From a virus, in the IMG/VR virus record IMGVR_UViG_3300045988_065571: DNA of 64,000 bases; one strand, given 5' to 3'. The position numbers and the translations under genes are program-made. Shown in pieces: positions 48,683 through 63,990 of the stretch. Each line of letters starts with the position of its first letter. The first letter of the stretch is position 1. The notes beneath the pieces are model-generated. The model worked only from the letters and a program-made list of their open reading frames with translations. It ran no database searches and was not told where the DNA came from.

Positions 48683-48724
48683 CATAGAGAAATTAATTAA
48701 GTAACATTTTTAAATTAGTCAATT

Positions 48725-49174: not shown

Positions 49175-49192
49175 TTAATCCTTTGTTAACCC

Positions 49193-49248
49193 GGGACTGG
49201 GAACACATTAGTTTGCTATTTTCAAATTCCCAGTCCCATATTTATTTT
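49193..49248 (+). terminator. long-loop hairpin terminator candidate
   Basis: 11-bp stem GGGACTGGGAA/TTCCCAGTCCC, 23-nt loop, then ATATTTATTTT. Confidence 0.45.
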
Positions 49249-49252
49249 GGTT

Positions 49253-49820: not shown

Positions 49821-50158
49821 TAAAAGATGTATATATCGGTAAATCACAACTGGGGATCTGGGTAAATGGGAAAAGGGTCCCCAAAGAAACTCTGGTAAAG
49901 GATATTGCCTTACCAACCTTACTGGGAAATAAATTGCCAGATTATGGTACCATAGGAAATTTTACCCAGTGGGAATTCGAAGTTAACCCAGGAGGCAATC
50001 ACAAATTATTTATCACAGGTATACCCAAGAAAACTTATGACTTGGACTTATACCGATTAAAAGGGAGATTATGGTCATCCTATTACGAGGATGATAAAAG
50101 GGGATACTTATTTCAGGTATTACCCTATGATGTTAAACACCTAGAAACAGAGATATAA
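49805..50158 (+). CDS. hypothetical protein
   Basis: 117-aa ORF in the + strand array. Confidence 0.6.
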   Translation: MFREIVKDVYIGKSQLGIWVNGKRVPKETLVKDIALPTLLGNKLPDYGTIGNFTQWEFEVNPGGNHKLFITGIPKKTYDLDLYRLKGRLWSSYYEDDKRGYLFQVLPYDVKHLETEI

Positions 50159-50162
50159 TATA

Positions 50163-50558
50163 ATGGAAACAAAAGATTACGTAAAGATATTTAGACTAGA
50201 TCAAGAGAACTTCCAATTTAATAGAGGAGAGTTTATGAATAAATTGGGAGAAGATTTACTAGAGATGTGCCAGAATATGCAAAAGATAAACCCAGCAACT
50301 GGTCACATATATTATTCAGATTTTAAAAAGGTAGTAAAACACTTCGAGGATAAATTTAATGAAATCAGTCGGCAAAGTATAAGACCTTTATCCCAGAATT
50401 TATGGAAGGCATTCTTTGCAACTCAGGTAGTGCCCCTAAGAAAACTCTGGTACCCAGAAACACAAAAAAGGATAGAGGAAATGAAAAATAACTCTAGTGA
50501 ACAAGACAAAAAATCCTCGAGAGGTAAAAAAGGCAATTATGGCAAAGGAAATCGTTGA
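50163..50558 (+). CDS. hypothetical protein
   Basis: 131-aa ORF in the + strand array. Confidence 0.6.
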   Translation: METKDYVKIFRLDQENFQFNRGEFMNKLGEDLLEMCQNMQKINPATGHIYYSDFKKVVKHFEDKFNEISRQSIRPLSQNLWKAFFATQVVPLRKLWYPETQKRIEEMKNNSSEQDKKSSRGKKGNYGKGNR

Positions 50559-50844
50559 CCTTCATGGCAATATTTTTAAGGTAATTAAAGGTTGGGAATT
50601 TTATAACAAGGTTCCCAACCTTGAAGGGAATTATACCTGGATATTTACTAGGGATAGGATTACCGATACTCAATTCATTTTGGCTTTAAATGAAGAACTC
50701 AATATAGCAGTTGGTTATTGGTATTCTAATATTTATCAACTATACGTAGCTCGTCCTCTTAAAAGGATTGGATACGATGAATCTAAGGATATAAGAAAAG
50801 AATATTTGTATAATGGCAAAAGACAACATAAAAAGATTTCCTAG
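50539..50844 (+). CDS. hypothetical protein
   Basis: ATG 50539 (MAKEIV, context TTATGGC typical here) is preferred over the listed 50497. Confidence 0.5.
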   Translation: MAKEIVDLHGNIFKVIKGWEFYNKVPNLEGNYTWIFTRDRITDTQFILALNEELNIAVGYWYSNIYQLYVARPLKRIGYDESKDIRKEYLYNGKRQHKKIS

Positions 50845-51721
50845 ACCTATGGGAACTACTGCAATGGCAGCAGAATACCAAAAGAGTCAGAATCTTGAAG
50901 ATTTACAAAAGGTATACAACTACATTATCAATCACTGGTTGATGGGTAATGGCATGTTATGTGGGATTATGTATGATATTAATACCTTCTCAACAAAGAC
51001 AGGTATAGATATCAATTACATACGAGTATTTATGAGAGATAGATTATTGCAATCTAAGCTTTGGGATAAAGAAAGACAGGAAGAAATGCTACAAGCTCTA
51101 TTGGGAGAACAAGTAGCATGGGCTTTAGAGGATAGAATGGAAATCTCCCATCAGGTAAATATCCTAAGAGAATCTCAGGGAGGACATTATACTCCATTCA
51201 TATCTGCTGAATTGAATAAGGCTCTTAAGATGAAACTAGATTCTTCTACTTCATTGCAATCCATCATACGTACATTTATGGGTGGAGGAACTACCAATAT
51301 CTTTAATCAATTTGGAGATACCCAGAATAATCAATTGAATCAGAACCAAGGTATATCAATAGAGGAAGCCAGAAAGATTATCCTAGAATCTCAAAAGATA
51401 ATGGACAAGCCACAGGAAGCCAAATTATTGGCAGATCACTATGATTTATCTTCTTTACCCGAGGTAGTTGCTACTAAGCAAGAAGGAATTGATACTACCA
51501 AAGAGGGCCTTACTTTGAATACTGCAGAGATGAGGCAAATTACCGATGATTACAAGGGAGCTATGGAACTCTCTTCAAGAGAACACCATGAATTAAGAAG
51601 AGAGATAGAAGCTAACATAGATCCCGAGGATCCAGACCCAGAGATAGATATGTATTTAGATGAAGAGCAATATGAAGAAAAAGAGCCTACATCAATAGCT
51701 GAACAATTCCTCAACAGGTAA
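50813..51721 (+). CDS. hypothetical protein
   Basis: 302-aa ORF with an acidic C-terminus. The alternative start is ATG 50849. Confidence 0.6.
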   Translation: MAKDNIKRFPRPMGTTAMAAEYQKSQNLEDLQKVYNYIINHWLMGNGMLCGIMYDINTFSTKTGIDINYIRVFMRDRLLQSKLWDKERQEEMLQALLGEQVAWALEDRMEISHQVNILRESQGGHYTPFISAELNKALKMKLDSSTSLQSIIRTFMGGGTTNIFNQFGDTQNNQLNQNQGISIEEARKIILESQKIMDKPQEAKLLADHYDLSSLPEVVATKQEGIDTTKEGLTLNTAEMRQITDDYKGAMELSSREHHELRREIEANIDPEDPDPEIDMYLDEEQYEEKEPTSIAEQFLNR

Positions 51722-51730
51722 TCGAGGTTT

Positions 51731-51762
51731 ATTGCATAATTAATTTATTATTCTTAAATTTG
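51731..51762 (+). promoter_or_regulatory. early promoter P51
   Basis: ATTGCAT (-33 TTG 51732-51734), 20-nt spacer, -7 TAAATTTG 51755-51762 (TTTGCAT). ATG 51788. Confidence 0.6.
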
Positions 51763-51787
51763 CATCAAATAAATAAATAATAAGATT

Positions 51788-51982
51788 ATGGATAAAACCA
51801 CATTAAAACAGCTTAAACCAGGTACACTATTCAGATTAAAAGATTCTGAATCTAGTCCAGTATGGGTAAGAGATCATTATGATAGGTCTTCTAAAACTTA
51901 TGCTTGTCATAAATACGAAGACTACAATCATGAAGCTTTCTTCAAAGGAACCAGAACAGTATTCATTAATTTTACATATTAG
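51788..51982 (+). CDS. hypothetical protein
   Basis: 64-aa ORF downstream of the promoter. Confidence 0.55.
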   Translation: MDKTTLKQLKPGTLFRLKDSESSPVWVRDHYDRSSKTYACHKYEDYNHEAFFKGTRTVFINFTY

Positions 51983-51987
51983 ACATT

Positions 51988-52665
51988 ATGAACATCAAAA
52001 ACCTATTCAACAGATTTCGTAAATCAAAGGAATCAGAGTTAAGCTATTCTCTGAATCTCATCTACCTAGAAGATACTAGGGTAGTATTTAACCAGAATAT
52101 ACAATGTGCTAAAGACCTAGAGAATTACCTATCTGCTTATATGAGACTCTTTGGTATGTATTCAGATAAACCCTATGTACTAATCTATCAGGAATACAAA
52201 AACAGATATTGGGTATATGACAAAGAACCTTACCTATTATACTATAAGGTACCACTTATAGTTAACCTCAGTAGAAAGCTATCAGGGAAATCAGACATGG
52301 TAATAACCAAAGAAAAATACCAAGCTGCTAAGGATTTAGTTCCAGCCCATGAAGTATCTGATAGATTCAAGATACCAGAATATATTACGGGAGTCTTTAC
52401 AGATATCTGGTATAAATGCCAAGGATATATGGATACGGACCATGTTGGTTTAGAGGAGATACTGGAATTGATGCAACATAATTGGTTAAAGGAATTCGAA
52501 TTATTAGTATTCAAAAGGAATTACGATACAGATATGTTATTCCTTAATCATTCTCTTACCTATATCTTGGACCAGACAGAAGAAGAGGGCCGAAGAATAT
52601 GTATTCAAAACATTATCGAACGTAACATAAATCAAGAAAATCAAGATGAAAACGAAACAATTTAA
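51988..52665 (+). CDS. hypothetical protein
   Basis: 225-aa ORF. Confidence 0.6.
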   Translation: MNIKNLFNRFRKSKESELSYSLNLIYLEDTRVVFNQNIQCAKDLENYLSAYMRLFGMYSDKPYVLIYQEYKNRYWVYDKEPYLLYYKVPLIVNLSRKLSGKSDMVITKEKYQAAKDLVPAHEVSDRFKIPEYITGVFTDIWYKCQGYMDTDHVGLEEILELMQHNWLKEFELLVFKRNYDTDMLFLNHSLTYILDQTEEEGRRICIQNIIERNINQENQDENETI

Positions 52666-52951
52666 CGTAAGCCAGTCTAGAATATATCCAGATATCAGGG
52701 ATAAATATCTGGATTATATGGGAGAACAATATAATATGTTCATTTCGGATGATACTCTAAAGAATGATCTCAGAGAAATCCTTCGAAAGGGTACTAATAA
52801 AACCATCCATTTCAATATTCTAGAAAAGAACTCAGATCTCTTGGTATTTGAAACCTCTGAATACAGTACTCTATTAGAGTTCACTAACCATTATCTCTGG
52901 ATATTCAGGCTAGTAAACGATAAATGGAATTTAATCCGATACAGAGTATAA
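52646..52951 (+). CDS. hypothetical protein
   Basis: 101-aa ORF with a 20-nt overlap on the upstream gene. Confidence 0.55.
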   Translation: MKTKQFNVSQSRIYPDIRDKYLDYMGEQYNMFISDDTLKNDLREILRKGTNKTIHFNILEKNSDLLVFETSEYSTLLEFTNHYLWIFRLVNDKWNLIRYRV

Positions 52952-52955
52952 ATTC

Positions 52956-52982
52956 GAAAGGCAGACTAACCATCTGCCTTTC
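52956..52982 (+). terminator. hairpin terminator
   Basis: 10-bp stem GAAAGGCAGA/TCTGCCTTTC, 7-nt loop, 5 nt after the stop codon. Confidence 0.5.
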
Positions 52983-52999
52983 ATAGCGTTTACACCTAT

Positions 53000-53052
53000 C
53001 CTCAGCTTAGTATTCCAGAATTTGCATATATAAAATAAAGTAGTTATATTTG
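53000..53052 (+). promoter_or_regulatory. early promoter cassette P53
   Basis: CCTCAGC 53000-53006, N14, TTTGCATAT (-33 53021-53024), 20-nt spacer, -7 TATATTTG 53045-53052. Confidence 0.75.
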
Positions 53053-53093
53053 CATAAGAAAAATAATTAATAACATTTTAAAATTTTAGACTT

Positions 53094-53453
53094 ATGAAAA
53101 ATAATGAAACCTTCCAAACCACACAACATCTAGACAAGTTAGTTACTAACCTAGGTCTTCAAATCCAAGAATTATTTTCCTTAGACTTAGAGGAAATCCT
53201 AGATTACAGCAACAATCTAATGAATCTATTAGTTAATGCTTACGTTGAAAATCAATGCTTAGCATTATCTGCAATGATATCTAAACAGGACGGATTTGCA
53301 ATATACTCTTTCTTATTTCAAACTCCTGATACTTCTAACGGTGCTGCAGATGCTCTGGTAAATTTTGCCATGAACTTTACTGATGGAGAAGCTAATATCA
53401 AATCTATCAACAGAATATCTTCAAACATAATGCAAATCACCTTTACAGTATGA
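53094..53453 (+). CDS. hypothetical early protein
   Basis: 119-aa ORF preceded by the conserved leader TTTAAAATTTTAGACTTATG. Confidence 0.65.
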   Translation: MKNNETFQTTQHLDKLVTNLGLQIQELFSLDLEEILDYSNNLMNLLVNAYVENQCLALSAMISKQDGFAIYSFLFQTPDTSNGAADALVNFAMNFTDGEANIKSINRISSNIMQITFTV

Positions 53454-53764
53454 CACCCATAAGAAGAATCTTAAACATGGTACAATTTGATCTAGCCGAG
53501 AAATTAAACTTGGCTAGATTAAGATGGTATCATTTGAATCATCAGGACCAATACCTTCAATCAGTAATCTATGGTAATCCTGATAATTGTACCTTGTTCA
53601 GACTAAGGAAAGTACTTACTAATTTGCTTAGAGCTAACTTCTTAAGTTACTACATATTAGCAGATACTCCTGAATCTCTATCTATTTCAATACAAGGTAA
53701 TGCTATCATTACATTTGTGATAACTAAAGACAATTACATAACTTTTACAATAACGAAATTATGA
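53450..53764 (+). CDS. hypothetical protein
   Basis: 104-aa ORF with an ATGA overlap. Confidence 0.6.
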   Translation: MTPIRRILNMVQFDLAEKLNLARLRWYHLNHQDQYLQSVIYGNPDNCTLFRLRKVLTNLLRANFLSYYILADTPESLSISIQGNAIITFVITKDNYITFTITKL

Positions 53765-54057
53765 GCACAACTCCATACCCAGGTCCAGATGAAGTAATTA
53801 TACCATCTCGTATATATTTCGATGAAGGTAAGAGAATAGATGTTAAAGTATGGCCTAAGACCATTCAATTAACAGGTCCCACTAAGGATTTAAACAAGGT
53901 ATTCAAAACCCTTGAAGAATATGATGATTGGTGGCATCAGTTTAAGAAAAAGAATCCAGATGCCTTCCGTAAAGATGCGAAATATGTAAAATCCATTAAT
54001 GGCCTCTTCCTTATTCAGAAAAGGCTCTATCAGATACCCAATAGAAGCCTCAGCTAA
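53761..54057 (+). CDS. hypothetical protein
   Basis: 98-aa ORF. The CCTCAGC box of the next cassette is embedded in its last codons. Confidence 0.6.
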   Translation: MSTTPYPGPDEVIIPSRIYFDEGKRIDVKVWPKTIQLTGPTKDLNKVFKTLEEYDDWWHQFKKKNPDAFRKDAKYVKSINGLFLIQKRLYQIPNRSLS

Positions 54058-54101
54058 GTAATCAGGGATATTGCATATTTAAAAATAAAGTATTATATTT
54101 G
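54048..54101 (+). promoter_or_regulatory. early promoter cassette P54
   Basis: CCTCAGC 54048-54054, N15, ATTGCATAT (TTG 54071-54073), 20-nt spacer, -7 TATATTTG 54094-54101. Confidence 0.75.
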
Positions 54102-54145
54102 CATCAGAAAAAGAAATATATTATTCATTTAAAATTTAGGCAGTC

Positions 54146-54535
54146 ATGAACTTGAACAACATTACAACAGCCCTTAAAACCGGTATCACAATTTACCAAT
54201 ACGAACAATGGCAAAATACTGGTTCAGTCAACCTAATGCAAAAGGAATCCCACATGCTTTCCAAGGTTTGGCTTAAGACAAATATCTATAACCCAGATTC
54301 TTTGGATAAACCCTTTATCCAACTCTCTGCTACTTTTACTTTAGAATTCGATATCCAAGAATATAACGAATGGCTAAATGCTAATCAGTACAAGTTATAT
54401 CCATTGCTATTGGATATTCTTAAGATATCACTAAAGGATAATTTCTACAATTACTCCAATGCTTCTAATATTCATTACGAAGGAGGGAAATTCCCAAGTA
54501 TGCTTACCATTCAATTATTTAACTTAGAATTCTAA
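54146..54535 (+). CDS. hypothetical early protein
   Basis: 129-aa ORF downstream of the promoter. Confidence 0.65.
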   Translation: MNLNNITTALKTGITIYQYEQWQNTGSVNLMQKESHMLSKVWLKTNIYNPDSLDKPFIQLSATFTLEFDIQEYNEWLNANQYKLYPLLLDILKISLKDNFYNYSNASNIHYEGGKFPSMLTIQLFNLEF

Positions 54536-54539
54536 TGTC

Positions 54540-54806
54540 ATGAAACTAACAATAACAACCCTAGTAATCATAGAAGGCCATTATATCCAAGGAATTTATC
54601 ATTCCTTGGAAGAGCATCCAGGTAAAGCTTACCAAGAACTGGTAGACCAAGTGGAAAACGAATATGGTTATGATGCCGATAAAGATCATGTACCATTACA
54701 TTTCAAAACTATCCAAGACATAGAGAATTACTTTGAACTTGTACACATAGAGACTCAAGAACTTACAGCAACCGGATTTAAAACAGCAATTTTAAAAGAA
54801 CTATAA
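54540..54806 (+). CDS. hypothetical protein
   Basis: 88-aa ORF. Confidence 0.6.
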   Translation: MKLTITTLVIIEGHYIQGIYHSLEEHPGKAYQELVDQVENEYGYDADKDHVPLHFKTIQDIENYFELVHIETQELTATGFKTAILKEL

Positions 54807-54807
54807 T

Positions 54808-55158
54808 ATGGAACCAATCATAACAATAAACGAATACCCAATCGGATGGGAATGGTTAGACAGAGTACCTTTAGAGGACTTTACCTGGCTAATCGAAATA
54901 TTTGCTACCATGACCGATGATATATGTACTTATGACTTTGCTACCTTCGATAAGGAAGCAACCGATGGAGAACCTCCCTATCCCGTAATCGAAATCAATC
55001 GAAGAGAGTTAGCCTACTTCATGTATGAGGACCAGGGATACGAATCAGGCATATCAATGTACGGTCATTATATAGCATGTAAATCCTTAGACATATTTTC
55101 AGAAGAAGAGTATATGAATCAATTAACTGACATAAAACTAATCTGTAACGAATTATGA
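54808..55158 (+). CDS. hypothetical protein
   Basis: 116-aa acidic ORF. Confidence 0.6.
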   Translation: MEPIITINEYPIGWEWLDRVPLEDFTWLIEIFATMTDDICTYDFATFDKEATDGEPPYPVIEINRRELAYFMYEDQGYESGISMYGHYIACKSLDIFSEEEYMNQLTDIKLICNEL

Positions 55159-55391
55159 GAACAGCATTATATTACATGGGACTAGGGCTTATCTTAGTCC
55201 TATTCCTTAATTCCTCTGGGCCTAACTTAGATACATTCATACCAGGCAATCCATGGGAACATTATTGCAAATATGAATTGCACAAGCATCCATTCCATAC
55301 TAATGAGAAGGAATATAACTATTTCCTTGATACTTTTACTAGCACAGATAAATATGAACAAATAATGGAGATATATGCTAACCCAAAGTAG
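55155..55391 (+). CDS. small membrane-anchored protein
   Basis: 78 aa with N-terminal TM ALYYMGLGLILVLFL. ATGA overlap. Confidence 0.55.
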   Translation: MRTALYYMGLGLILVLFLNSSGPNLDTFIPGNPWEHYCKYELHKHPFHTNEKEYNYFLDTFTSTDKYEQIMEIYANPK

Positions 55392-55659
55392 ATTTCTAAT
55401 TTCATATCAAATATTCGATAATATACAGGTAAATAATATCGGACAAACGCATGTACGTGAAATATTAAAGGATACCCAGGCCTTTACCATCAATTATCGA
55501 ACAGAACAAATAAGAGATTACCTCAGATATCCTGGAGAGGAACTGATACCAGAACATCTACATATGATTAATGCCTTGAAGGAAATCCAGAACTATTGGA
55601 ATCTTACTTCAGAAAAGGTTATCATAACAGATATTATACCTATTCCTCAGCCAGGATAA
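55375..55659 (+). CDS. hypothetical protein
   Basis: 94-aa ORF. A CCTCAGC box lies within its last codons. Confidence 0.55.
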   Translation: MLTQSRFLISYQIFDNIQVNNIGQTHVREILKDTQAFTINYRTEQIRDYLRYPGEELIPEHLHMINALKEIQNYWNLTSEKVIITDIIPIPQPG

Positions 55660-55697
55660 CCATGGTTTGCATATATAAAATAAATATATTACTTTTG
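55645..55697 (+). promoter_or_regulatory. early promoter cassette P55
   Basis: CCTCAGC 55645-55651, N14, TTTGCATAT (-33 55666-55669), 20-nt spacer, -7 TACTTTTG 55690-55697. Confidence 0.75.
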
Positions 55698-55738
55698 CAG
55701 AGTAAATTTAATTATTAACTATTTAAAATTTTAGACTT

Positions 55739-55969
55739 ATGAAAAATAATGAACTATTAAAAAAGTATGCCGGTATCTCAACCCGTATCCGCAGAATCTT
55801 TGCTTATCACTACGACCAAATCCAACGGGAAGTACAAACAGAAATTTCAACACTTACCCCAGAATTACAGGCACAATTCATGGACTTAGTCGTTGAATAC
55901 ATGGAAGAATCCATTAACTGGCCCGATCCCGATGACCAAGAAACATTCGAAAAACAATTACTCGGATAA
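55739..55969 (+). CDS. hypothetical early protein
   Basis: 76-aa ORF preceded by the leader TTTAAAATTTTAGACTTATG. Confidence 0.6.
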   Translation: MKNNELLKKYAGISTRIRRIFAYHYDQIQREVQTEISTLTPELQAQFMDLVVEYMEESINWPDPDDQETFEKQLLG

Positions 55970-55973
55970 TGCC

Positions 55974-56195
55974 ATGACAACAATTGCTTACATTATGAAT
56001 ACCTATCACATAGGTACTTATAACTTAGATATCAGGGATGTACTCAAATCCTATATTATTGCCAGATACTATGGATGGGAACCAAAAGAGGAAGACCTAG
56101 AGGAAATCATTTCCCATACAACCTATTTCGATATCAACATAGATGATGCTATCTATGAAGTCCTAACAATGCCAAGAGAAAAAATAACCCTTTAA
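55974..56195 (+). CDS. hypothetical protein
   Basis: ATG 55974 (MTTIAY) lies just after the upstream stop and is preferred over the listed 55893. Confidence 0.5.
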   Translation: MTTIAYIMNTYHIGTYNLDIRDVLKSYIIARYYGWEPKEEDLEEIISHTTYFDINIDDAIYEVLTMPREKITL

Positions 56196-56201
56196 AAAAC
56201 A

Positions 56202-56618
56202 ATGAAAAGAATGAAAACTTTATCACAAATCACAATCAGTCAGAATGATAATCAAATACTAACCTGCAAAGTATACAAAGAGCCCAACTATATATTATCT
56301 ATGTCCAATGAAGAAATATTAGAACTCATCTCTGGACTAGACTATATAGGTAACCTACCAACGGTACCAGACCTAGAGAAACCAATTGAGATCCAAATCA
56401 CAACTACAAGAGAAATACCCTTAGAACAAAACAAAGAAGTCCAAACCAAAATCAAAGAGATAATATACAATAACCTCTATGATACTCTAGTAAATGAACT
56501 AAAGAATACCATCTCTAGGTTCCAAACCGAGTATCACATCCAAGAGATAAACCCATACCTAGACGATATAATTCAGAACCCAGAAGACCTAGTACCTCAT
56601 AGAACAAAACAAAGATAA
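56202..56618 (+). CDS. hypothetical protein
   Basis: 138-aa ORF, last gene before the long non-coding region. Confidence 0.6.
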   Translation: MKRMKTLSQITISQNDNQILTCKVYKEPNYILSMSNEEILELISGLDYIGNLPTVPDLEKPIEIQITTTREIPLEQNKEVQTKIKEIIYNNLYDTLVNELKNTISRFQTEYHIQEINPYLDDIIQNPEDLVPHRTKQR

Positions 56619-56627
56619 ATAAAAAGA

Positions 56628-56660
56628 ATACCTAGAGCCAAGAACACTCTAGGTATTTCT
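56628..56660 (+). terminator. hairpin terminator closing the early array
   Basis: 10-bp stem ATACCTAGAG/CTCTAGGTAT, 9-nt loop, then TTCT. Confidence 0.55.
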
Positions 56661-56860
56661 GTGTACACAAACCAAGTATATAAATCCTAACCCACCTCCC
56701 AAAACAAAAACAAATATAAATAAACCTAATACTAAGGTATACAATTAACCTCATATACACAATCTGAATATACAGATATCACTAACTAAGATACATACAC
56801 ATTACCTAATCACAATCAATATATAATAATACATATAACTAATACTAATTTACTTTTCTT
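56661..56860 (+). other. G-depleted A/C/T tract (non-coding)
   Basis: By my count only about 6 G in about 190 nt (56671-56860) on the + strand. No ORF of 60 aa or more on either strand. Confidence 0.6.
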
Positions 56861-56989
56861 AGGTTCTTGGTTTATTCCTTTTCTGTGTACCGACGGGGGT
56901 TTTTCGAAAATGTCGGGAACATACCCATTTGGCTTCTCTCACTATATCAAACACTATAGCTCTCAAAATTTAAAGTACTAAATCCTTGA

Positions 56990-57420
56990 GGCCCCAAAGG
57001 CCATTTTAGGCAATAAAATCACCAATCCTGGCCCCTAAATCACAGAAAAGCAAAAAGTACACTCTGGCAATAGTTTTTGAGATACGTATATGAGCCTTTT
57101 TGACACGTAGCTATTTTAGTAACGCCTATATATAATATACTAATATGGGTGGGATTTAGATACGTATGTATTTTAGCTTCACACGTGTAATTGAAAAGTG
57201 TTCTGTTTGGCTAGTTTGTGTAATCTAGGATTTAGGTTGTGATTTTGTGTACCTAGACTCGGATTTTAATTGCCAAGAGGCTAGGATTTATATTAAAATT
57301 GTGTACCTAGAGGGGCCATTTTAGGCTCGGATTTAATAAAACTGGGTACACAATTTATGCCATAAATGGCCTCGGATTTAATAAATTTCTAGGCAATCAA
57401 GGAGCCAATTTTAATTGCCA
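56990..57420. repeat. cluster of short dispersed direct and inverted repeats in ORF-free DNA
   Basis: GGCCATTTTAGGC x2 (56999, 57314). GGCCCC(T)AAA x2 (56990, 57030). TTGTGTACCTAGA x2 (57245, 57299). CTCGGATTTAATAAA x2 (57326, 57371). ATTTTAATTGCCA x2 (57263, 57408). 12-bp inverted repeat AAATTGTGTACC at 57296-57307 / 57345-57356. Confidence 0.8.
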
Positions 57421-57516
57421 TCCTAGTAATATTGTTGTTAATTGCATAAGTATTTATATTATGGTTATTTTAGATAATTCTAGGACATTAGGGGCCTTCG
57501 AAAGGCAAACTGGGAT

Positions 57517-57548
57517 ATTGCATAATTAAAATATTGTTCTTATATTTG
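57517..57548 (+). promoter_or_regulatory. early promoter P57
   Basis: ATTGCAT (57517-57523), 20-nt spacer, -7 TATATTTG 57541-57548. The 26-nt block is identical to P48. Confidence 0.7.
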
Positions 57549-57589
57549 CATCAGATAATTAATTTAATAACTAATTAAAATTTTAGATT

Positions 57590-57985
57590 ATGGAAACAAC
57601 AATTAAAACTTCATTTAACTTTGCAAAAGAGATTCAATGTAATTTTATTACTAAAAACTCTAACCTTGAACACTCCTATCCTGGAGGCTTACCAGAGTTC
57701 ATTACTCCTTACCTACAGGAGTTACAGGAAAATACCATTATACCTGACCACACTACTTTAATATCAATTACCACAATCGATAATCCAGACCAAGACGGTA
57801 TACATATACTAACTTTCCTTAAAAACGATCCAGAACATTTCGATGACGACGACACTGCAAGCATTACTTGCATCGAATGCTTACGGGACACATTTGCCTA
57901 TGATCCTGAGGCATGCTTTGGCCAAGCCCCAATCATAACAGAGTTCAATAGCTTTTTCACAGTATCAATCCCCTACAATTATTAA
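57590..57985 (+). CDS. hypothetical acidic protein
   Basis: 131-aa ORF. Its 30-nt leader plus start is identical to 31631-31660. Confidence 0.65.
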   Translation: METTIKTSFNFAKEIQCNFITKNSNLEHSYPGGLPEFITPYLQELQENTIIPDHTTLISITTIDNPDQDGIHILTFLKNDPEHFDDDDTASITCIECLRDTFAYDPEACFGQAPIITEFNSFFTVSIPYNY

Positions 57986-57996
57986 ATTACTAACCT

Positions 57997-58016
57997 GGCA
58001 CCCATAACTGGGTGCC
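57997..58016 (+). terminator. short hairpin after 57590 gene
   Basis: GGCACCC/GGGTGCC stem, 6-nt loop, no U-tract. Confidence 0.3.
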
Positions 58017-58033
58017 TACAAATCCTATTACCT

Positions 58034-58312
58034 ATGAACACCGAAGAATTATCAAACCGATTAACACAAATCCTTACAGGTATTACCAGTGGAGAGCCTA
58101 ACCCTAATATTATTCAAGGCTTTGTCCAGAACTTTATCGAAGACTTCAAACCAGATTACTATTACGAAATCTCAGTCACAGACGTAGAAGGTTATAGCCC
58201 TACCTTTATCGAATACTATGCCTGGGACGAAGACGAGGATGGTCCTATACCTGGTATAAAACTTTTCAAAGACTTCAACATATACCTTGAACGAGAGTAT
58301 TGCGAATACTAG
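58034..58312 (+). CDS. hypothetical acidic protein
   Basis: 92-aa ORF. Confidence 0.6.
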   Translation: MNTEELSNRLTQILTGITSGEPNPNIIQGFVQNFIEDFKPDYYYEISVTDVEGYSPTFIEYYAWDEDEDGPIPGIKLFKDFNIYLEREYCEY

Positions 58313-58319
58313 TAATATT

Positions 58320-58350
58320 GCCCAGGCCTAACTAAGGTACCTGGGCTTTT
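58320..58350 (+). terminator. intrinsic terminator
   Basis: GCCCAGG/CCTGGGC stem, 13-nt loop, then TTTT. Confidence 0.65.
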
Positions 58351-58359
58351 CTATGTACA

Positions 58360-58654
58360 TACCTAAGAGGCCATCTATAGACTTCATATAATTACCTAAG
58401 AGGTACTAGAGCTTTACTACACATATACTTACTAGCCTTATATAAGAACCCACTAGGCCTATCTATAGATCTTATAAGGCTTACCTAAGTACGCTAACTA
58501 TCGACCATATATGGCCTTCAGGTAATAGGTATATAATATACAGATATTCTATAGCCACTTAAAAGGCCCTCCGAAAATCCCCTAGAATCTTCTGGCCATG
58601 GGGATTTGAATATAGGATTACCTAGAGGATATAGTAAGGGAACCATAGATGGCC
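58360..58654. repeat. second ORF-poor repeat cluster (TACCTA(A)GAGG and GGCCATCTAT-type motifs)
   Basis: TACCTAAGAGG at 58360 and 58393, TACCTAAG at 58482, TACCTAGAGG at 58619. GGCCATCTATAG at 58369, GGCCTATCTATAG at 58456, inverted CCATAGATGGCC at 58643. Confidence 0.7.
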
Positions 58655-58864
58655 TTAACCTTGTTATCATACAGGTATTATATAGCGGACAACGTGCGGG
58701 CAATTTAGGCCGCCCGGAGGTTAATGGGTGGAAATTTGATAAAAATTTTTGATAATAAATAATGTATGCGCAAATAATAAAATTTTTGAGATATGCAAAT
58801 ATTTTCTGAAAATTATTCTTAAAATAATAAAATTCATTTTTAACAAAAAATTTTCTCGAATTTT

Positions 58865-58895
58865 TTTGTAGATTAAAATAAAGTCCTTATATTTG
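58865..58895 (+). promoter_or_regulatory. host-type promoter in AT-rich island (upstream copy)
   Basis: -33 TTTG 58865-58868, 19-nt spacer, -7 TATATTTG 58888-58895 (TTTGCAAT). Confidence 0.65.
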
Positions 58896-58963
58896 CAATA
58901 CAGAAACAAAGAGAGGTTTAAAATTTAATGAGAAAAATTTTTCAAAAAAAAATCTTTGAAAAT

Positions 58964-58994
58964 TTTGCAAATTAAAATATTATTCTTATCTTTG
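58964..58994 (+). promoter_or_regulatory. host-type promoter in AT-rich island (downstream copy)
   Basis: -33 TTTG 58964-58967, 19-nt spacer, -7 TATCTTTG 58987-58994 (TTTGCAAT). Confidence 0.65.
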
Positions 58995-59099
58995 CAATGT
59001 AATCAAAAAACAAATATTAATCAATCCTTGTTTGAACCGATAAAATCGTTTCAACTCTTTAAGACAAGGATATAAAAAACTTAAAGAGTGCGTAATTTT

Positions 59100-59570
59100 A
59101 TGACACAAGAAAATCTAGTTTCAGTTAATGAAAATGTAAAGGTTGAAAATTCTTCAAAAGAAAAAGTAAACAAAGTAAGTGCTAAAAAAGCTAAAGCACA
59201 AGCAAAAGCAAATAATATTCTTTATAAGGATATTCTAGCTAATTTAAATAAATCTACTGAGGGACTTTTAAAAACTTCTTTTGGTGTCAAAAAATCAGAC
59301 ATTTATAAAGAAGAAATTTTTTTAGAACTTTCAGACAAAGAGAAAAAAGTTGCTCGAAAGAAATTCCGTAATACAATTCTTTCATTGTCCGAAAGTTTGA
59401 CACAAGAAAAGGACAAAACACGATTAGAAAAACTAAAAAAAGCGTTTTTAGATTTTTATAAACAAGTTTACAAAGTAAATGATTTTTCACTTTCTTCAGT
59501 TTGTTCTGAAAATATGAAAGAAACAAACAAAGAAATTTTGAAAAAGGCTTTACAAATTGTAAAAAAATAA
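59100..59570 (+). CDS. lysine-rich helical protein encoded in AT-rich island
   Basis: The ORF track starts at GTG 59088. The first ATG (MTQENL) is at 59100. The codon usage is dominated by AAA/AAT/TTT and differs from the rest of the window. Confidence 0.65.
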   Translation: MTQENLVSVNENVKVENSSKEKVNKVSAKKAKAQAKANNILYKDILANLNKSTEGLLKTSFGVKKSDIYKEEIFLELSDKEKKVARKKFRNTILSLSESLTQEKDKTRLEKLKKAFLDFYKQVYKVNDFSLSSVCSENMKETNKEILKKALQIVKK

Positions 59571-59582
59571 ATTGTTTAATCA

Positions 59583-59608
59583 GAGTAAGGGATTAATTCC
59601 CTTACTCT
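59583..59608 (+). terminator. hairpin terminator (island gene 1)
   Basis: 11-bp stem AGAGTAAGGGA/TCCCTTACTCT, loop TTAA. Confidence 0.5.
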
Positions 59609-59624
59609 CTAAATCAAAGAAATT

Positions 59625-59948
59625 ATGTTACTAGTATTATTTATTGTAGGTTTAAGTTTGATTATATATGGTTTGATTTTAAGTTATTGGACTTTAAAGA
59701 AAAATCACGGATTTATAGTTTATCTAAACAAGGGTCAATATAGAGTATATCTAATTCATCTAAACACTTTAAATTTCTTTGAAATTGAAGCGTTTAAAGA
59801 AACTTCTTTGTTTCGATTTAATTTAAAATCGTGGTTTTATTATTTAATGTATCAATTTGAAAATGAAACCGATTCCACGGATTTATTAAAAATTTTCAAA
59901 AAACAACAAGAAAGGGACAAAGCTAAAATAAAAATATTTAATAAATAA
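59625..59948 (+). CDS. small membrane protein encoded in AT-rich island
   Basis: N-terminal TM MLLVLFIVGLSLIIYGLILSYW. 107 aa. Confidence 0.6.
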   Translation: MLLVLFIVGLSLIIYGLILSYWTLKKNHGFIVYLNKGQYRVYLIHLNTLNFFEIEAFKETSLFRFNLKSWFYYLMYQFENETDSTDLLKIFKKQQERDKAKIKIFNK

Positions 59949-59955
59949 TTTTACT

Positions 59956-59987
59956 AGTAAGGGAATGTTTGTCCCTTACTTTTTTTT
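59956..59987 (+). terminator. intrinsic terminator (island gene 2)
   Basis: 9-bp stem AGTAAGGGA/TCCCTTACT, 7-nt loop, then TTTTTTT. The stem sequence is shared with the terminator at 59583. Confidence 0.8.
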
Positions 59988-60027
59988 ACTTCATTCTAAA
60001 TAAGGGCTACCGTACCCCGTTTTTAGT

Positions 60028-60298
60028 ACCACAACTTTTTACCTCCTCGTATTAAGGGCATTGCCTAGAAAAGCCTTGAACATACTACACAAAAAATTTC
60101 CTACACACACGTTAAGGGCATACCAAGACACAACACACAAAGAAGCCAGAGACCTAATATCCCTGGCATTCATCCTACAAAAGAATATTCAATATTTCCT
60201 TAATCCTATTCTTCCCAATAAGCATTCTACCATTCCTTACTTCATAAAAGAAAACATAATACTTCTGAATCTCAATACACCACAACTTTTTACCTCCT
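60028..60298. repeat. 20-bp direct repeat pair (60028-60047 and 60279-60298)
   Basis: ACCACAACTTTTTACCTCCT occurs twice. The second copy is inside the minus-strand gene (encodes EGGKKLWC). The first is non-coding, with similarity decaying beyond it. Confidence 0.8.
60145..60167 (-). terminator. weak hairpin downstream of the minus-strand cluster
   Basis: GCCAG/CTGGC stem. On the minus strand it is followed by a TTCTTTGTGTG T-rich stretch. Confidence 0.3.
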
Positions 60299-60459
60299 TC
60301 TAATAAAGGTTCTATTCTCATCATATCTCCTGGGTCAATCCAAATCTGATACCAAATACTCTTACCTTCAGAACATCTTAATATTCTCTTTTCACTATCT
60401 TCTCTTAATCTATCAATCCTTACCATACTCTTCCTTAATCCTTTATCTATATTGCTCAT
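60175..60459 (-). CDS. hypothetical protein
   Basis: ATG at 60459 (MSNIDKG) overlaps the upstream stop as ATGA. Preferred over the listed 60492. Confidence 0.55.
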   Translation of the reverse strand: MSNIDKGLRKSMVRIDRLREDSEKRILRCSEGKSIWYQIWIDPGDMMRIEPLLEGGKKLWCIEIQKYYVFFYEVRNGRMLIGKNRIKEILNILL

Positions 60460-60842
60460 GATGCTAATCCATATAAAAATATTATAAACCAAGCCACTAG
60501 GATAAAGGTATAAGGGATTGCATACTTCTTAAAGGGATATCCCTCTATCCCATCATTGAGAGCATATATAAATACTATGGGCCATAGCAATATCATTAAT
60601 GCTACTCCCAGTAACTTAAACCAAGTAAAGCCAAGGCATACCATAGCATCAAAATTCATTGAGCTACCCTTATAATTACCGTGACTATCGAAGTGATAGT
60701 AGTTCTTAGGTTTTAATACTTGCTCAGCTCCCAGGTAGGGTGGTAGGTCCTTTTTAATGAACCTACCCTTGCTATCTCTTGCCCTTTTACTTAGAAGTTT
60801 AGGGGCAGATAAATCTTCGTCATAATCTTTAATTCTAGCCAT
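60456..60842 (-). CDS. membrane protein
   Basis: 128 aa with 3 hydrophobic segments in the C-terminal half (MVCLGFTWFKLLGVALMILLWPIVFIY, IPYTFILVAWFIIFLYGL). Confidence 0.6.
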   Translation of the reverse strand: MARIKDYDEDLSAPKLLSKRARDSKGRFIKKDLPPYLGAEQVLKPKNYYHFDSHGNYKGSSMNFDAMVCLGFTWFKLLGVALMILLWPIVFIYALNDGIEGYPFKKYAIPYTFILVAWFIIFLYGLAS

Positions 60843-61023
60843 TGTTTTTCTTTTTAAAGAATATTAGGTAAATAGGAAATAAAGGTAATACTAACCAGAT
60901 TGTAAGAAATAATAGATGAGGTCTTATCATCCTGATTTCCTGACATAACAGCTTGGTTAGAAATATAGAGGGGATTAGGCATATCCCATAGATTATGCCT
61001 AATATTGTCCAAGTACTATTCAT
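60835..61023 (-). CDS. small two-TM membrane protein
   Basis: 62 aa: WTILGIIYGICLIPSIFL and LLFLTIWLVLPLFPIYLIFF, with a basic end. Confidence 0.55.
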   Translation of the reverse strand: MNSTWTILGIIYGICLIPSIFLTKLLCQEIRMIRPHLLFLTIWLVLPLFPIYLIFFKKKNNG

Positions 61024-61402
61024 TGAGCTTTTCGATTAGTTTTTTAAGTTTCTTATCTAAGGTTATCACTTTCTCAAGGGTTTCATCATCCTTGTGTTTC
61101 CCATTATCATCCAACCATTTTTTGATTGCCTCTAGGGATTTCTTGGATTGGTGATATGCAACAAAGGCATTGTACTTCTGTTCATTCTCTGGAGTACAAG
61201 GTAGGATTATTGCATTACCTTTTCCATCTAATCGAGTAAATTGACCCTCTAGATTTGTTGTTCTAGTGATTATTACCTTATTAGATAATATTGCAGTACC
61301 ATTCTTTTTATCGATAGATACTACGTTTGCCTTTTCCATTAGGGTTTTGTCTTGGTAAATTACCGAATTACCCTCTTTGAGTTTTACTATTTCTTTTTTC
61401 AT
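61016..61402 (-). CDS. hypothetical protein
   Basis: The listed start 61459 is TTG and would span a promoter -7 box. ATG 61402 (MKKEIVKL) is preferred. Confidence 0.55.
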   Translation of the reverse strand: MKKEIVKLKEGNSVIYQDKTLMEKANVVSIDKKNGTAILSNKVIITRTTNLEGQFTRLDGKGNAIILPCTPENEQKYNAFVAYHQSKKSLEAIKKWLDDNGKHKDDETLEKVITLDKKLKKLIEKLNE

Positions 61403-61429
61403 ATAAATAAAGTATTTATTTTTGTTATA

Positions 61430-61460
61430 CAAATATACTATTTTATTTTTAAATATCAAT
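61430..61460 (-). promoter_or_regulatory. internal promoter of the minus-strand cluster
   Basis: On the minus strand: ATTG (61460-61457), 19-nt spacer, TATATTTG (plus-strand CAAATATA 61430-61437), 27 nt upstream of ATG 61402. Confidence 0.5.
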
Positions 61461-61824
61461 CATTATTAAATAAATTCTGCAAATCTTCTGAGGTTATACC
61501 ATGCTGACGATAGTAGTCGTATTCCCAAGGATTTAGAGGTTTGCAATTGACTGGGTATTCGTCCCTTAATTCGAAAGGCAAATAGCCAAGAAATTCTATA
61601 CTGTTGAAATACTGTACCTTACCATCAGTAAATAAGAAATATTTCAGAGGTCTATCGATTGCCTTACCGAAACTACTTCCTATTAATCTGATATCCTTGT
61701 TGGCAATGTAAACATGATACTTATCAGTTATCAAATATACCTGGGTATTCCAGGGTTTCTTCGATTCATCTAGGGTTTTCCTAAACCAATCAATCATAAT
61801 CTGTTGTTTCTTTCCCATATCCAT
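61456..61824 (-). CDS. hypothetical protein
   Basis: 122-aa ORF, first gene of the minus-strand cluster, divergent from the endolysin gene. Confidence 0.6.
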   Translation of the reverse strand: MDMGKKQQIMIDWFRKTLDESKKPWNTQVYLITDKYHVYIANKDIRLIGSSFGKAIDRPLKYFLFTDGKVQYFNSIEFLGYLPFELRDEYPVNCKPLNPWEYDYYRQHGITSEDLQNLFNND

Positions 61825-61929
61825 AATTAAATTATTTATTCATTGATAAATAGAACTCGATATACCCACCTAAGAAAGGCTACAAGCAATACTTTACCAT
61901 CTTTAATGTAAACTCTAAGAATTTATATT

Positions 61930-62538
61930 ATGGATAAACTTACTAACGAATTAATTGCCAAGGTTGCAAACAAGTTAAACCTTGAACCAGCTCTGTTAAA
62001 GACAGTAACTGTAGTAGAATGTGGTAATCGAGACGGATTTTTACCCTCTGGTAGACCTCAGATTCTCTTCGAGGGTCATGTAATGTGGAAATATTTGAAG
62101 ATAAAACTCGATGGAGAAGGTAAAAGAACCTATTTATATGACCTAGCCAAGAGAAATCCATCCTTAGTTTATCAGAAATGGACCAAAGAATTCTACTTAG
62201 GAGGTGAAGGAGAGTGGAAAAGACTCGAAGCAGCTCGTAAAATTGATGAAAACTGTGCTAATTTATCCACTTCTTGGGGATTGGGACAGATTATGGGCTT
62301 CAATTATCAGCTTTGTGGATGTCAATCAGTAGATGAAATGATCAAAAAGATGTCTGAATCTCATGAAATGCAGCTAGAAATGATGTATCATTTCCTCTAT
62401 AACTCTGGTTTAGTGAAGCATTTGAAGGCAAAAGACTGGGATGCTTTCGCTAAAGGATACAATGGTCCTGGTTACAAAGACAATAACTACGACCAAAAGC
62501 TGAGAAATACCTACGAAAACTTCAAAGATAAGCTATGA
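61930..62538 (+). CDS. endolysin, N-acetylmuramidase family
   Basis: LKTVTVVECGNRDGF...PQILFEGHV..., STSWGLGQIMGFNY, EMQLEMM, KDWDAFAKGYNGPGYKDNNYDQKL match the muramidase (DUF3380-type) family pattern. Confidence 0.85.
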   Translation: MDKLTNELIAKVANKLNLEPALLKTVTVVECGNRDGFLPSGRPQILFEGHVMWKYLKIKLDGEGKRTYLYDLAKRNPSLVYQKWTKEFYLGGEGEWKRLEAARKIDENCANLSTSWGLGQIMGFNYQLCGCQSVDEMIKKMSESHEMQLEMMYHFLYNSGLVKHLKAKDWDAFAKGYNGPGYKDNNYDQKLRNTYENFKDKL

Positions 62539-62885
62539 AAATAATTTATAACAACCTAATACCTTTCAAAGGGTACAAAGCCATCAACCTTTTTGGGTTA
62601 GTATTTGTAAGAAAAGGGGCTAAATTTACCGAAGTAGATTATAACCATGAACACATCCATTCAAAGCAAATGGCCGAAATGTTAGGGATATTTTTCTACC
62701 TTTGGTACGGAATCGAGTATTTAATCATCCTTTGTTTTGCTAAATGGAACAAGCAGAATGAAAGATATCATGATGTAAGCTTTGAAGAAGAAGCCCATAA
62801 TAATGATTCGAATCTAAGCTATCTGGAAAACCGTAAGCCTTATGCTTGGTTCAAGTACATAAAATTGAGAAGTTACAAGAAATGA
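62535..62885 (+). CDS. small membrane protein with HExxH motif
   Basis: NHEHIHSKQ, then TM GIFFYLWYGIEYLIILCF. Translationally coupled to the endolysin (ATGA) and to the next gene (ATGA). Confidence 0.45.
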   Translation: MKIIYNNLIPFKGYKAINLFGLVFVRKGAKFTEVDYNHEHIHSKQMAEMLGIFFYLWYGIEYLIILCFAKWNKQNERYHDVSFEEEAHNNDSNLSYLENRKPYAWFKYIKLRSYKK

Positions 62886-63895
62886 AAGACTTAAAAGTAC
62901 TGGGAGTATGTGGAGGGCAAGGAGCCCTCCTATTCCCTTTTAAAGATAAACTTATTGGGAATATCGAACCCAGAGGAGTATTCCATACAAGTAGAGAAAG
63001 CCAGTGGAAAGCTAACTTTAAAGGTATACCTTTCTTAAAAGGGTATGAACTACCCGAAGATTGGCATCCAGATATCATATTATCTAGCCCTGATTGTGGT
63101 AGTTGCTCAGTAATGAGGTTATCTAAATCTAAAGCCCTTGGAGACCCTAAAAGTAATAAAAGTATACAACTAGTATTTCAAGCAATTCAATATTACGAAC
63201 CTGCTCTCTTTCTTATAGAAAACCTACCAAGATTGCTATCTCTCATTTCTAAAGAAATGTTAACGGACTTCTTTAAGAACTATAAACTTATTTTTCACGA
63301 AAGAAGCGTTTCTGACTTCGGAAACTCCCAAGTATCAAGAAAAAGATTAGTAATCGTTGGAGTTCATTTAGACAAGGGAAAAGAATATTTGGATTCTTTT
63401 AATGAAGTATTCCAAGTAAATACTCCAAAACTTACTAGAGATTTACTAGTACAAGCTCCACAGGAAGCTTTAATCCCATTCTCTGATAAAGTTTTAGCCA
63501 TGTATGATTATCGGAAATTACCTGAAAAGAAAAATCTTACGGTCAGACAAGTAAGACAACTTTGGACTCATGATTTCAAAGATGAAAAGAAATGGCCAAT
63601 CAAAACTGCTAAGATGAGTACTCTCCCGGGAGTATATCGATTAGAAGATGATAAACCACCCTTAACACTTAGACCTTCTGATAGGCAATTTAGACCAGAT
63701 GGGTATCCTTTGGGTATTTATGATTTCAAGGCAATTATGGGATTCCCTGAAAATTACCGAGTATTTATTCGGGGATTTGCAACTTGGGACCCTAAGACTT
63801 ATCACTACTGGTTAAATAAGGCTAGGTATACACTTGCTAAAGGGTCGGTATGTGAAATAGGATTATGGTTTAAGAAATGCCTTAATTTCAAGTGA
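62882..63895 (+). CDS. divergent DNA (cytosine-5) methyltransferase-like protein
   Basis: Motif I-like LGVCGGQGAL, motif IV-like SSPDCGSCS (DC rather than PC), motif VI FLIENLPRL, motif VIII SQVSRKRLVIVG. ATG 62882 (ATGA overlap) is preferred over TTG 62846. Confidence 0.5.
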   Translation: MKDLKVLGVCGGQGALLFPFKDKLIGNIEPRGVFHTSRESQWKANFKGIPFLKGYELPEDWHPDIILSSPDCGSCSVMRLSKSKALGDPKSNKSIQLVFQAIQYYEPALFLIENLPRLLSLISKEMLTDFFKNYKLIFHERSVSDFGNSQVSRKRLVIVGVHLDKGKEYLDSFNEVFQVNTPKLTRDLLVQAPQEALIPFSDKVLAMYDYRKLPEKKNLTVRQVRQLWTHDFKDEKKWPIKTAKMSTLPGVYRLEDDKPPLTLRPSDRQFRPDGYPLGIYDFKAIMGFPENYRVFIRGFATWDPKTYHYWLNKARYTLAKGSVCEIGLWFKKCLNFK

Positions 63896-63930
63896 ATCCC
63901 CCTATATAAATCTAATAGGCTTTTAAAGGG

Positions 63931-63990
63931 TATTGGAATAAGGAATATTGGAATAAGGAATATTGGAATAAGGAATACTGATATAAGAAT
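63931..63990. repeat. 15-bp tandem repeat, three perfect copies plus a degenerate fourth
   Basis: TATTGGAATAAGGAA at 63931, 63946 and 63961, then TACTGATATAAGAAT. Non-coding, 36 nt after the methyltransferase-like gene. Confidence 0.85.

Follow-up and report, generated by a model that had tools for sequence, protein, structure and literature searches.

Positions 56619-57589 of the DNA discussed here, a 64,000-nucleotide stretch from a virus (IMG/VR record IMGVR_UViG_3300045988_065571; the whole stretch is what we call the window), hold a repeat-rich region that encodes no protein and very probably acts in cis, as DNA, being neither gene nor junk. This reading is well supported by a layout common to 73 of 73 loci from related phages, a near-invariant block of 226 nt, direct repeats above chance and repeat modules that vary in copy number. 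The function we favour, though we would stop short of betting on it, is that of an iteron-type origin of replication of a Flandersviridae/Gubaphage-type Bacteroidales phage. An earlier account of the same letters, made without database searches (the sequence-only reading), had proposed an origin, a packaging site or a genome terminus. Its origin suggestion survives in part: the anatomy is compatible with one (direct repeats, an A+T tract, a core that comes in types), while the function itself stays conjectural, with no initiator found.

Flandersviridae and Gubaphage are two names for one group (equated in PMC9610469), which by published reports ranks with the most prevalent human-gut phages and has no cultured member. 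The literature we found that mentions either name does not describe the element. Phage cis-acting repeat regions are familiar as a kind, and this one is new for a group that is uncultured and very prevalent; how constrained it is, and its diversity of types, stand out. The strongest sequence constraint in the part of the genome examined (~56.1-58.4 kb) sits here, in DNA that is not a gene. Were the element an origin, it would offer a handle on coverage-based phage activity in metagenomes, on shuttle vectors and engineering, and on finding the initiator protein; were it not, it would still be an unexplained constrained element. Its discrete core types could also provide an easy way to type strains and to follow recombination between co-resident phages.

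A region without genes, full of direct repeats

The longest open reading frame (ORF) on either strand of 56619-57589 is 42 aa, which bears out the sequence-only reading's claim that none reaches 60 aa. ORFs of at least 60 aa do occur within the region, in some relatives only. Recoding of TAG or TGA opens no frame across it; the longest is then 102 aa (TAG) or 113 aa (TGA), and there are 7-19 TAA stops per frame. On these grounds a hidden gene can be ruled out.

The repeats that had been picked out by eye are all where they were said to be. Direct repeats are GGCCATTTTAGGC (56999, 57314), TTGTGTACCTAGA (57245, 57299), CTCGGATTTAATAAA (57326 and 57371, with a variant at 57258) and ATTTTAATTGCCA (57263, 57408). 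GGCCCC stands forward at 56990 and 57030 and in reverse at 57312 and 57491. A 12-bp inverted repeat pairs 57296-57307 with 57345-57356, and the palindrome GTGTACAC lies at 56661. Among 316 equal-length pieces of the window, this is the most repeat-rich 971-nt stretch, ranking first for repeated 9-, 10- and 11-mers.

How much of this could be chance? We compared the region with 1000 shuffles that preserve dinucleotides. It has 10 direct 12-mer pairs where 0.17 are expected, a count reached by 0 of the 1000, and 26 direct 10-mer pairs where 2.0 are expected, again reached by no shuffle. Inverted 12-mer pairs are another matter: there are 2 against 0.41 expected, and 102 of the 1000 shuffles do as well, so the 12-bp inverted repeat is not significant by itself. 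The inverted repeats had been given some prominence in the sequence-only reading; the signal sits in the direct repeats instead. Individual words tell a similar tale. All four copies of TGTGTACC in 64 kb fall inside the region. GGCC occurs six times where about one is expected, and the description of GGCC words as conspicuous was a fair one. GGATTT appears six times in 222 nt, always in one orientation, where the remaining window has 0.67 per kb. An iteron-type origin calls for at least three same-orientation direct repeats of one word, above chance, and the GGATTT-core words provide them.

Two grander structures did not hold up. A large imperfect palindrome centred at ~56975 was rejected, its arms aligning with a score of 25 against 20.9 +/- 2.6 in shuffles. 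A tandem array, of the kind found with type III antitoxin-like RNA or CRISPR-like loci, was rejected too: TRF gives just two-copy A+T-rich rows, and the apparent 45-nt units are alike in their first 15 nt only.

The same layout in every relative

We used the conserved downstream gene (57590-57985) to collect related loci: IMG/VR gave 31 and metagenomes 54. The layout is common to all 73 loci that have at least 900 nt upstream of that gene. Its order is a hairpin terminator, a variable G-poor tract, an anchor, a promoter-less core of 0.6-0.9 kb, the words CTAGGAC and TTAGGGG, and an early promoter of Bacteroidota type. The core holds CACTATA repeats, AGGCAA, TAGGCAA, TTAGGGG, GGCC and GGATTT words, and A+T-rich tracts. 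The anchor word GGGGGT[AT]T is found in 73/73 loci, 590-950 nt upstream of the downstream gene, and there is one anchor per 21-kb locus that includes it.

Within this fixed layout the cores fall into ~17 sequence types, which can be aligned across types only in patches. What the types share is vocabulary. The shared words are ~20- to 180-fold commoner than in the remaining window, occur in 12-17 of the 17 types and are mostly strand-biased. CACTATA is present in 15 of 17 types, with 30 copies against 1 in the remaining window. AAGGCAA/TAGGCAA and TTAGGGG are 37-49 times as frequent as in the remaining window and occur in 16-17 of the types; CTAGGAC and TTAGGGG are in all 17.

Within a type the picture is one of striking uniformity. 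The window's own core type is found in 28 loci, and among its 26 distinct sequences only 8 of 226 columns vary in 57036-57260, where mean pairwise identity is 99.5%. Nine of 100 columns vary in 57401-57500. More variable than 57036-57260 are 56867-56950 and the repeat array at 57261-57400. For the flanking genes, the nearest relatives show 92-94% identity. In some carriers the same core type adjoins downstream proteins of 52-55% identity, the overall range being 52-99%.

Modules change in number among relatives. Locus L088 has 33 nt more than the window and L045 has 22 nt more, while L086 lacks 45 nt, a deletion that removes one arm of the 12-bp inverted repeat. Among distant types a block of ~180 nt is present in some and absent from others. 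Recombination around the element appears frequent. Mosaic genomes are seen at L003 and L034 (positions 1-70) and at L018 (3772-5627): in L003 a window-type downstream gene follows a pre-promoter block of distant type, and in L018 a window-type upstream gene leads into a core of distant type. Core type set against the alleles of nearby genes gives no pointer to a putative binding protein, since the methylase clade is fully congruent with core type in the loci compared.

Anatomy, from left to right

The region opens with a hairpin at 56627-56657, an 11-bp perfect stem (AATACCTAGAG / CTCTAGGTATT) with a 9-nt loop, conserved in relatives, which closes the upstream early operon. The sequence-only reading had called a terminator here. 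The hairpin is certainly present; its good T-run, CTTTTTATTT, is on the minus strand, where the terminator is called, and the plus-strand tail is weak. It may be a bidirectional terminator. Next comes a G-poor, A/C-rich tract (56661-56880, plus strand) that keeps its composition while its sequence varies and is rich in insertions and deletions. Positions 56701-56800 contain 5 G and 19 C, the gap fraction in the nearest relatives is 18%, and such a tract lies 5' of the anchor in all sequence types. It may be a spacer or a Rho-loading (rut-like) insulator.

The conserved core begins at the universal anchor (56884-56910, plus), which reads TGTGTACC-GAC-GGGGGTTTTTCGAAAA and has the general form GTAC[CT]-N0-6-GGGGGT[AT]T. 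It is followed on the plus strand by the CACTATA repeat pair CACTATATCAAACACTATAGC (56940-56961) and by a block of GGCC, TAGGCAA and CCTAAATC words at 56978-57046 (GGCCCCAAAGGCCATTTTAGGCAAT ... GGCCCCTAAATC). Then comes the near-invariant block, 57036-57260, with ACGT-centred palindromes on either side of an A+T tract: ATACGTAT at 57082 and 57160, ACACGT at 57103 and ACACGTGT at 57181. Put another way, two copies of an ACGT-palindrome module (ATACGTAT, ACACGT(GT)) bracket the tract at 57127-57146, of which 19 in 20 positions are A or T. Inside this block an A/C-rich strand composition gives way, reading left to right, to a G/T-rich one.

The direct-repeat modules form an array at 57225-57426 (plus), each opening with C[TC][AC]GGATTT. 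Its GGATTT words lie at 57228, 57261, 57284, 57329 and 57374, with an extra copy at 57152; TGTGTACC octamers stand at 57246 and 57300 and, inverted, at 57345, and the two copies of ATTTTAATTGCCA (57263, 57408) belong to the array as well. A conserved pre-promoter block (57441-57510, plus) contains ATTGCATAAGTATTTATATTA, CTAGGAC (57480-57486) and TTAGGGGCC (57488-57496). The Bacteroidota-type early promoter at 57518-57548 (plus; TTGCAT at -33, TATATTTG at -7) drives gene 57590-57985 by way of an A+T-rich leader (57549-57589, plus) that ends TTAAAATTTTAGATT-ATG and is common to other early transcription units. The leader includes 57555-57585, which falls in the least stable 0.06% of 30-step windows.

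That promoter belongs to a family. A cassette of TTG at -33, TAnnTTTG at -7 (TTGCATAATTAAAATATTGTTCTTATATTTGCA) and an A+T-rich leader ending TTAAAATTTTAGAnTATG occurs 12 times between 17.6 and 61.5 kb: at 17660 (minus strand), 41437, 47368, 48675, 51755, 53045, 54094, 55690, 57541, 58888, 58987 and 61437 (minus strand). The twelve cassettes define an early regulon, and their form suggests a Bacteroidota host. A promoter weight matrix (PWM) built from 11 early promoters finds no early-promoter match on either strand of 56660-57500 (other promoter types being outside its reach) and gives its window maximum, 49.3, at 57541. The earlier claim that no promoter precedes 57517 therefore holds for the phage's own type, the matrix being empty over 56660-57500 and scoring 49 at 57541. 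A cluster of promoters was considered and rejected: sigma-70-type matches are at chance level, 57 found against 55.8 expected. The cassettes become alike only from ~57510, and other early promoters (for example those from 47368 to 55690) have short spacers without the core words.

A second promoter-less, ORF-free stretch lies at 58313-58860 (plus), after a hairpin and before the early promoters at 58888 and 58987. It shares words with the main region, namely eight GGCC[ATCG], mostly GGCC[AT]T, together with TATATAATATAC, CTATAGCCACT and GGGGATTT. It also contains a terminal G+C-rich island (58686-58722, GCGGACAACGTGCGGGCAATTTAGGCCGCCCGGAGG), and relatives share 88-98% identity across it. The main region, itself half of a 2.5-kb domain (56.6-59.1 kb) holding only two small genes, may have its partner element here. 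With the GGCC clusters in mind we sought the target specificity of the phage's C5 methylase (62846-63895) and found no sequence relative of it in the PDB.

A candidate origin of replication

How might an origin of this design work? A phage-encoded, type-specific DNA-binding protein would load on the direct GGATTT, TGTGTACC and AGGCAA words and on the ACGT palindromes, and the same protein would melt the duplex at the A+T tract (57127-57146) within the invariant block. The phage's DnaB-type helicase, DnaG-type primase and PolA would assemble at the opened tract. Later replication would be driven by recombination (UvsX, SbcCD, RusA), followed by T4-like headful packaging. The upstream hairpin and the G-poor tract would keep the transcription of the preceding early operon out of the element, and the early promoter at the right edge would fire away from it. 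Protein binding to the words, duplex opening at the tract and a replication start at this place are all steps that we infer.

Several features lead us to favour an origin. The direct repeats share an orientation and vary in copy number. The A+T tract is flanked by palindromic modules at the most constrained point of the element, and the local flip in composition has the polarity expected at a bidirectional origin. Transcription would be shielded off on both sides. The ~17 discrete core types occupy one locus and are each conserved within type, and discrete types at one locus are the pattern of origin/initiator specificity pairs. Finally, the phage brings a full replisome of its own (helicase, primase, polymerase, SSB) along with recombination proteins.

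There is also a good deal that weighs against an origin. No initiator was recognised: the neighbouring ORFs have no Pfam or PHROG function, the adjacent small proteins carry no DNA-binding signature (two of them are acidic), and the 131-aa downstream protein, for which AlphaFold2 gives a weak model with a pLDDT of 66, resembles no known fold, its best PDB matches having a TM score of 0.42 or less with E above 0.001. A distant candidate initiator is the 273-aa ORF 21286-22107, which has a weak helix-turn-helix match. The repeats are short, imperfect and irregularly spaced (76, 33, 23, 45 and 45 nt for GGATTT, near multiples of 11 yet irregular), in contrast to the iterons of textbooks. The A-tract periodicity peak, at 11.3 nt, is in the top 1.4% of windows and is not significant when corrected for the 10 periods. 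The A+T tract at 57127-57146 belongs only to the least stable 1% of the window, with 56819-56849 and 57555-57585, close by, less stable. DnaA boxes (TTATCCACA, up to one mismatch) number zero in 56619-57589, and the window has 14 against 23.5 expected. Cumulative GC skew has its maximum at ~53 kb and a local minimum at ~62 kb, not at 57 kb. T4-type origins can be a promoter and an unwinding element without iterons, and near-continuous invariance over 226 nt exceeds what binding sites alone usually need.

The lambda ori, P4 ori/crr, SaPI ori and SPP1 oriL all have, as here, several short same-orientation direct repeats in non-coding DNA. Iteron-type origins of phages and satellites also share with our element an A+T-rich stretch between repeated or palindromic sites, variation in copy number and specificity-like types at one locus, and P4, with its ori plus crr, provides a parallel for a second related element ~1.3 kb away. 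In contrast to those origins, the repeats here are shorter (6-8-nt cores in 23-45-nt modules), imperfect and irregular, and they come without DnaA boxes. In lambda and SaPI the origin lies beside or within the initiator gene (O and rep), whereas no nearby initiator gene was identified here. T4 is instructive in a different way. Its oriE has iterons and RepEA/RepEB, while oriF and oriG are a promoter with an unwinding element. Our phage resembles T4 in its UvsX, SSB and SbcCD-like genes, its gp17-type terminase and the strong promoter beside very A+T-rich DNA at the right edge of the element. The difference is that this promoter and its A+T-rich leader are common to all 12 early promoters, hence not site-specific, and that a RepE-like protein was not recognised.

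Other possible roles for the element

Early-transcription control is the alternative we take most seriously, though we think it unlikely. This would then be a control or insulator region, its repeats a platform on which a DNA-binding protein, from phage or host, regulates the early operons to either side. Such a protein might shut off or boost the promoter at 57518-57548 or organise the DNA of the early region, with the G-poor tract as a Rho-dependent stop. The position is right for it: the region sits between two early units, with a terminator on its left and the strongest early promoter on its right. The pre-promoter block (CTAGGAC, TTAGGGGCC) is universal, the similar spacer at 58313-58860 precedes the next early-promoter pair, and the G-poor tract keeps its composition and not its sequence. 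Yet the other early promoters manage with short spacers and without these words, at least 600 nt of constrained DNA is large for an operator, and the most invariant block stands 260-500 nt from the promoter.

Some other role at the level of DNA strikes us as improbable. The element might be a centromere-like or partition site for episomal persistence, or a homology 'linker' for the recombination of mosaic early-gene modules. The flanks are indeed strongly mosaic, the same core sitting beside downstream proteins of 52-99% identity and L003 and L018 being hybrids, and the assembly breakpoints of circular contigs scatter in the area. Extrachromosomal persistence has been raised for Flandersviridae since their genomes so often close into circles (Benler et al., PMC8008677). 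Against a partition site, the group has no known partition genes (PMC8008677) and none was seen in the window. Against a linker, a plain homology anchor needs no internal repeat arrays, palindromes or discrete types. The phage was found in no isolate genome, and a search of 185,579 species genomes for an attP site or prophage, an idea we dropped, gave one match, a 2.8-kb contig of a metagenome-assembled genome that is labelled 'uncultured Firmicutes' and is probably mis-binned.

A long shot combines these ideas with an origin. The element and its possible partner at 58313-58860 would together serve maintenance, as an origin that may or may not be joined by a centromere-like site, and the sequence types, at least 17 of them, would be specificity or incompatibility groups. 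These very common 'lytic' gut phages could then conceivably replicate as episomes in Bacteroidales, in a carrier state. A module of this kind could set which co-infecting strains coexist or recombine.

That the region is a packaging signal, a genome terminus or the boundary of a terminal repeat we regard as very unlikely. A terminase or terminus-processing system would read the repeats, and the DNA would end near the GGGGG anchor. T7 has arrays of short CCTAAAG-like words beside its terminal repeat, followed by early promoters. As at a T7-type concatemer junction or left end, ~1 kb of non-coding DNA with short polar words (CCTAAATC / GGATTTAGG) lies just 5' of early genes with host-type promoters, a position that also recalls the left ends of T5- and N4-type genomes. 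The boundary at the anchor is sharp, and five short contigs end within ~100 nt of it, weak evidence because a junction of variable and conserved DNA breaks assembly graphs in mixed-strain samples. Unlike T7, however, our phage has a T4-like terminase and no detectable terminal repeat or fixed end. Among named proteins, those closest to its large terminase, TerL, are T4-like gp17-type enzymes (from cyanophages and from Flavobacterium and enterobacterial phages). Terminases of that type package by the headful and leave no unique end. TerL lies at ~65.0-66.5 kb in window-equivalent coordinates, ~7.4 kb downstream, with early, lysis and methylase genes in between. Three complete contigs circularise at three different positions with overlaps of 101, 119 and 77 nt, which are assembler-sized, and true terminal repeats were rejected on that account. 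Contig starts are scattered, with no common nucleotide. Read coverage was even over one member of the group (Benler et al., PMC8008677). With TerL ~7.4 kb away, circles that close at arbitrary points and scattered contig ends, the packaging-site and terminus suggestions of the sequence-only reading are disfavoured.

Least probable of the roles considered is that of a structured non-coding RNA, or several, or a long structured untranslated region. Both strands do fold better than shuffles (z = -3.1 and -3.8), but the gain is similar on the two strands, as expected of repeat-rich DNA. The near-continuous invariance of 57036-57260 is like that of RNA genes, and the hairpin at 56627-56657 would end a minus-strand transcript. 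On the other hand, Rfam gives no match at gathering scores over the window, and with E up to 10 only mir-450 (E = 1.4, chance level); no known RNA family, tRNA or tmRNA was found. There is no phage-type promoter on either strand inside 56660-57500. RNAalifold on the 26 sequences returns a covariation term of +0.32 kcal/mol with 1 of 189 pairs compensatory, a test with little power in a near-invariant 226 nt where hardly anything varies. The 12-bp inverted repeat carries uncompensated arm changes in L006 and L007, and L086 has lost one arm. The ~180-nt block that comes and goes among distant types, and the failure to find a common fold across types on either strand, also speak against RNA. A protein-binding array can accommodate the extra repeat modules of L088 and L045 and the loss in L086; a folded RNA would not tolerate such changes. 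The long structured RNA or leader that the sequence-only reading had named as its alternative thus finds no support from Rfam, the promoter matrix, covariation or cross-type folding. The lack of covariation, of an Rfam match and of an internal promoter suggests protein-binding DNA in place of RNA.

The phage and its genome

The window comes from a contractile-tailed phage of ~86 kb that fits the published description of the uncultured Flandersviridae/Gubaphage group. Flandersviridae have a median genome of 85.2 kb, a sheath, DnaB, DnaG and PolA, followed by ~20 kb of ORFs of unknown function, and Bacteroides or Parabacteroides hosts (PMC8008677, Benler et al. 2021). The Gubaphage core genes are homing endonucleases, PolA, primase, helicase, thymidylate kinase and dUTPase (PMC7895897, Camarillo-Guerrero et al. 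2021). The traits found here are a genome of ~85 kb, a contractile sheath, DnaB, DnaG, PolA, HNH endonucleases, dUTPase, thymidylate kinase (Tmk), ~20 kb of small unknown ORFs, Bacteroidota-type promoters and a human-gut source, the likeness being judged by descriptions and not by reference genomes. A point of difference is the non-coding element, described in neither PMC8008677 nor PMC7895897. The relatives' contigs, from IMG/VR and gut metagenomes, are 84-87 kb long, with double-length ones of ~170 kb, and come from human-gut samples. GenBank phages show no DNA similarity to the window in near or distant search modes, and the best protein matches of the window are to uncultured human-faecal phages.

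Nearly all genes of the window are on the plus strand. Tail sheath, tape measure and baseplate proteins are encoded at 0.8-17 kb. The block from 17 to 47 kb carries the genes of replication, recombination and nucleotide metabolism: a DnaB-type helicase, a DnaG-type primase, a second helicase, PolA, SSB, a UvsX-like recombinase, an SbcCD-like nuclease and RusA, along with dUTPase, thymidylate synthase, thymidylate kinase and two HNH endonucleases. Small ORFs of unknown function fill 47-60 kb. The endolysin gene starts at 61930 and is followed by the C5 cytosine DNA methylase (62846-63895; Pfam PF00145, E = 3e-9). A 97%-identical relative continues directly with the large terminase, portal, protease and major head protein.

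A few smaller observations are worth recording. The two HNH homing-endonuclease genes lie within the replication module, at 20566-21081 and 46779-47321. In the uncultured relatives MT121964 and MT121960 the PolA match is split into 2-3 pieces, which suggests insertions in polA there. The ~170-kb contig IMGVR_UViG_3300045988_026304 (loci L099 and L150) carries two distinct methylase alleles, one 97% and the other 68% identical to the window's, so that this contig at least is no dimer: it joins two different phage genomes head to tail. GC skew is negative (C>G on the coding strand) across the early-gene region, 53000-62000, and positive in the remaining window. A k-mer scan finds repeated 10- to 13-mers in excess also at 43000-44100 and 63000-63970.

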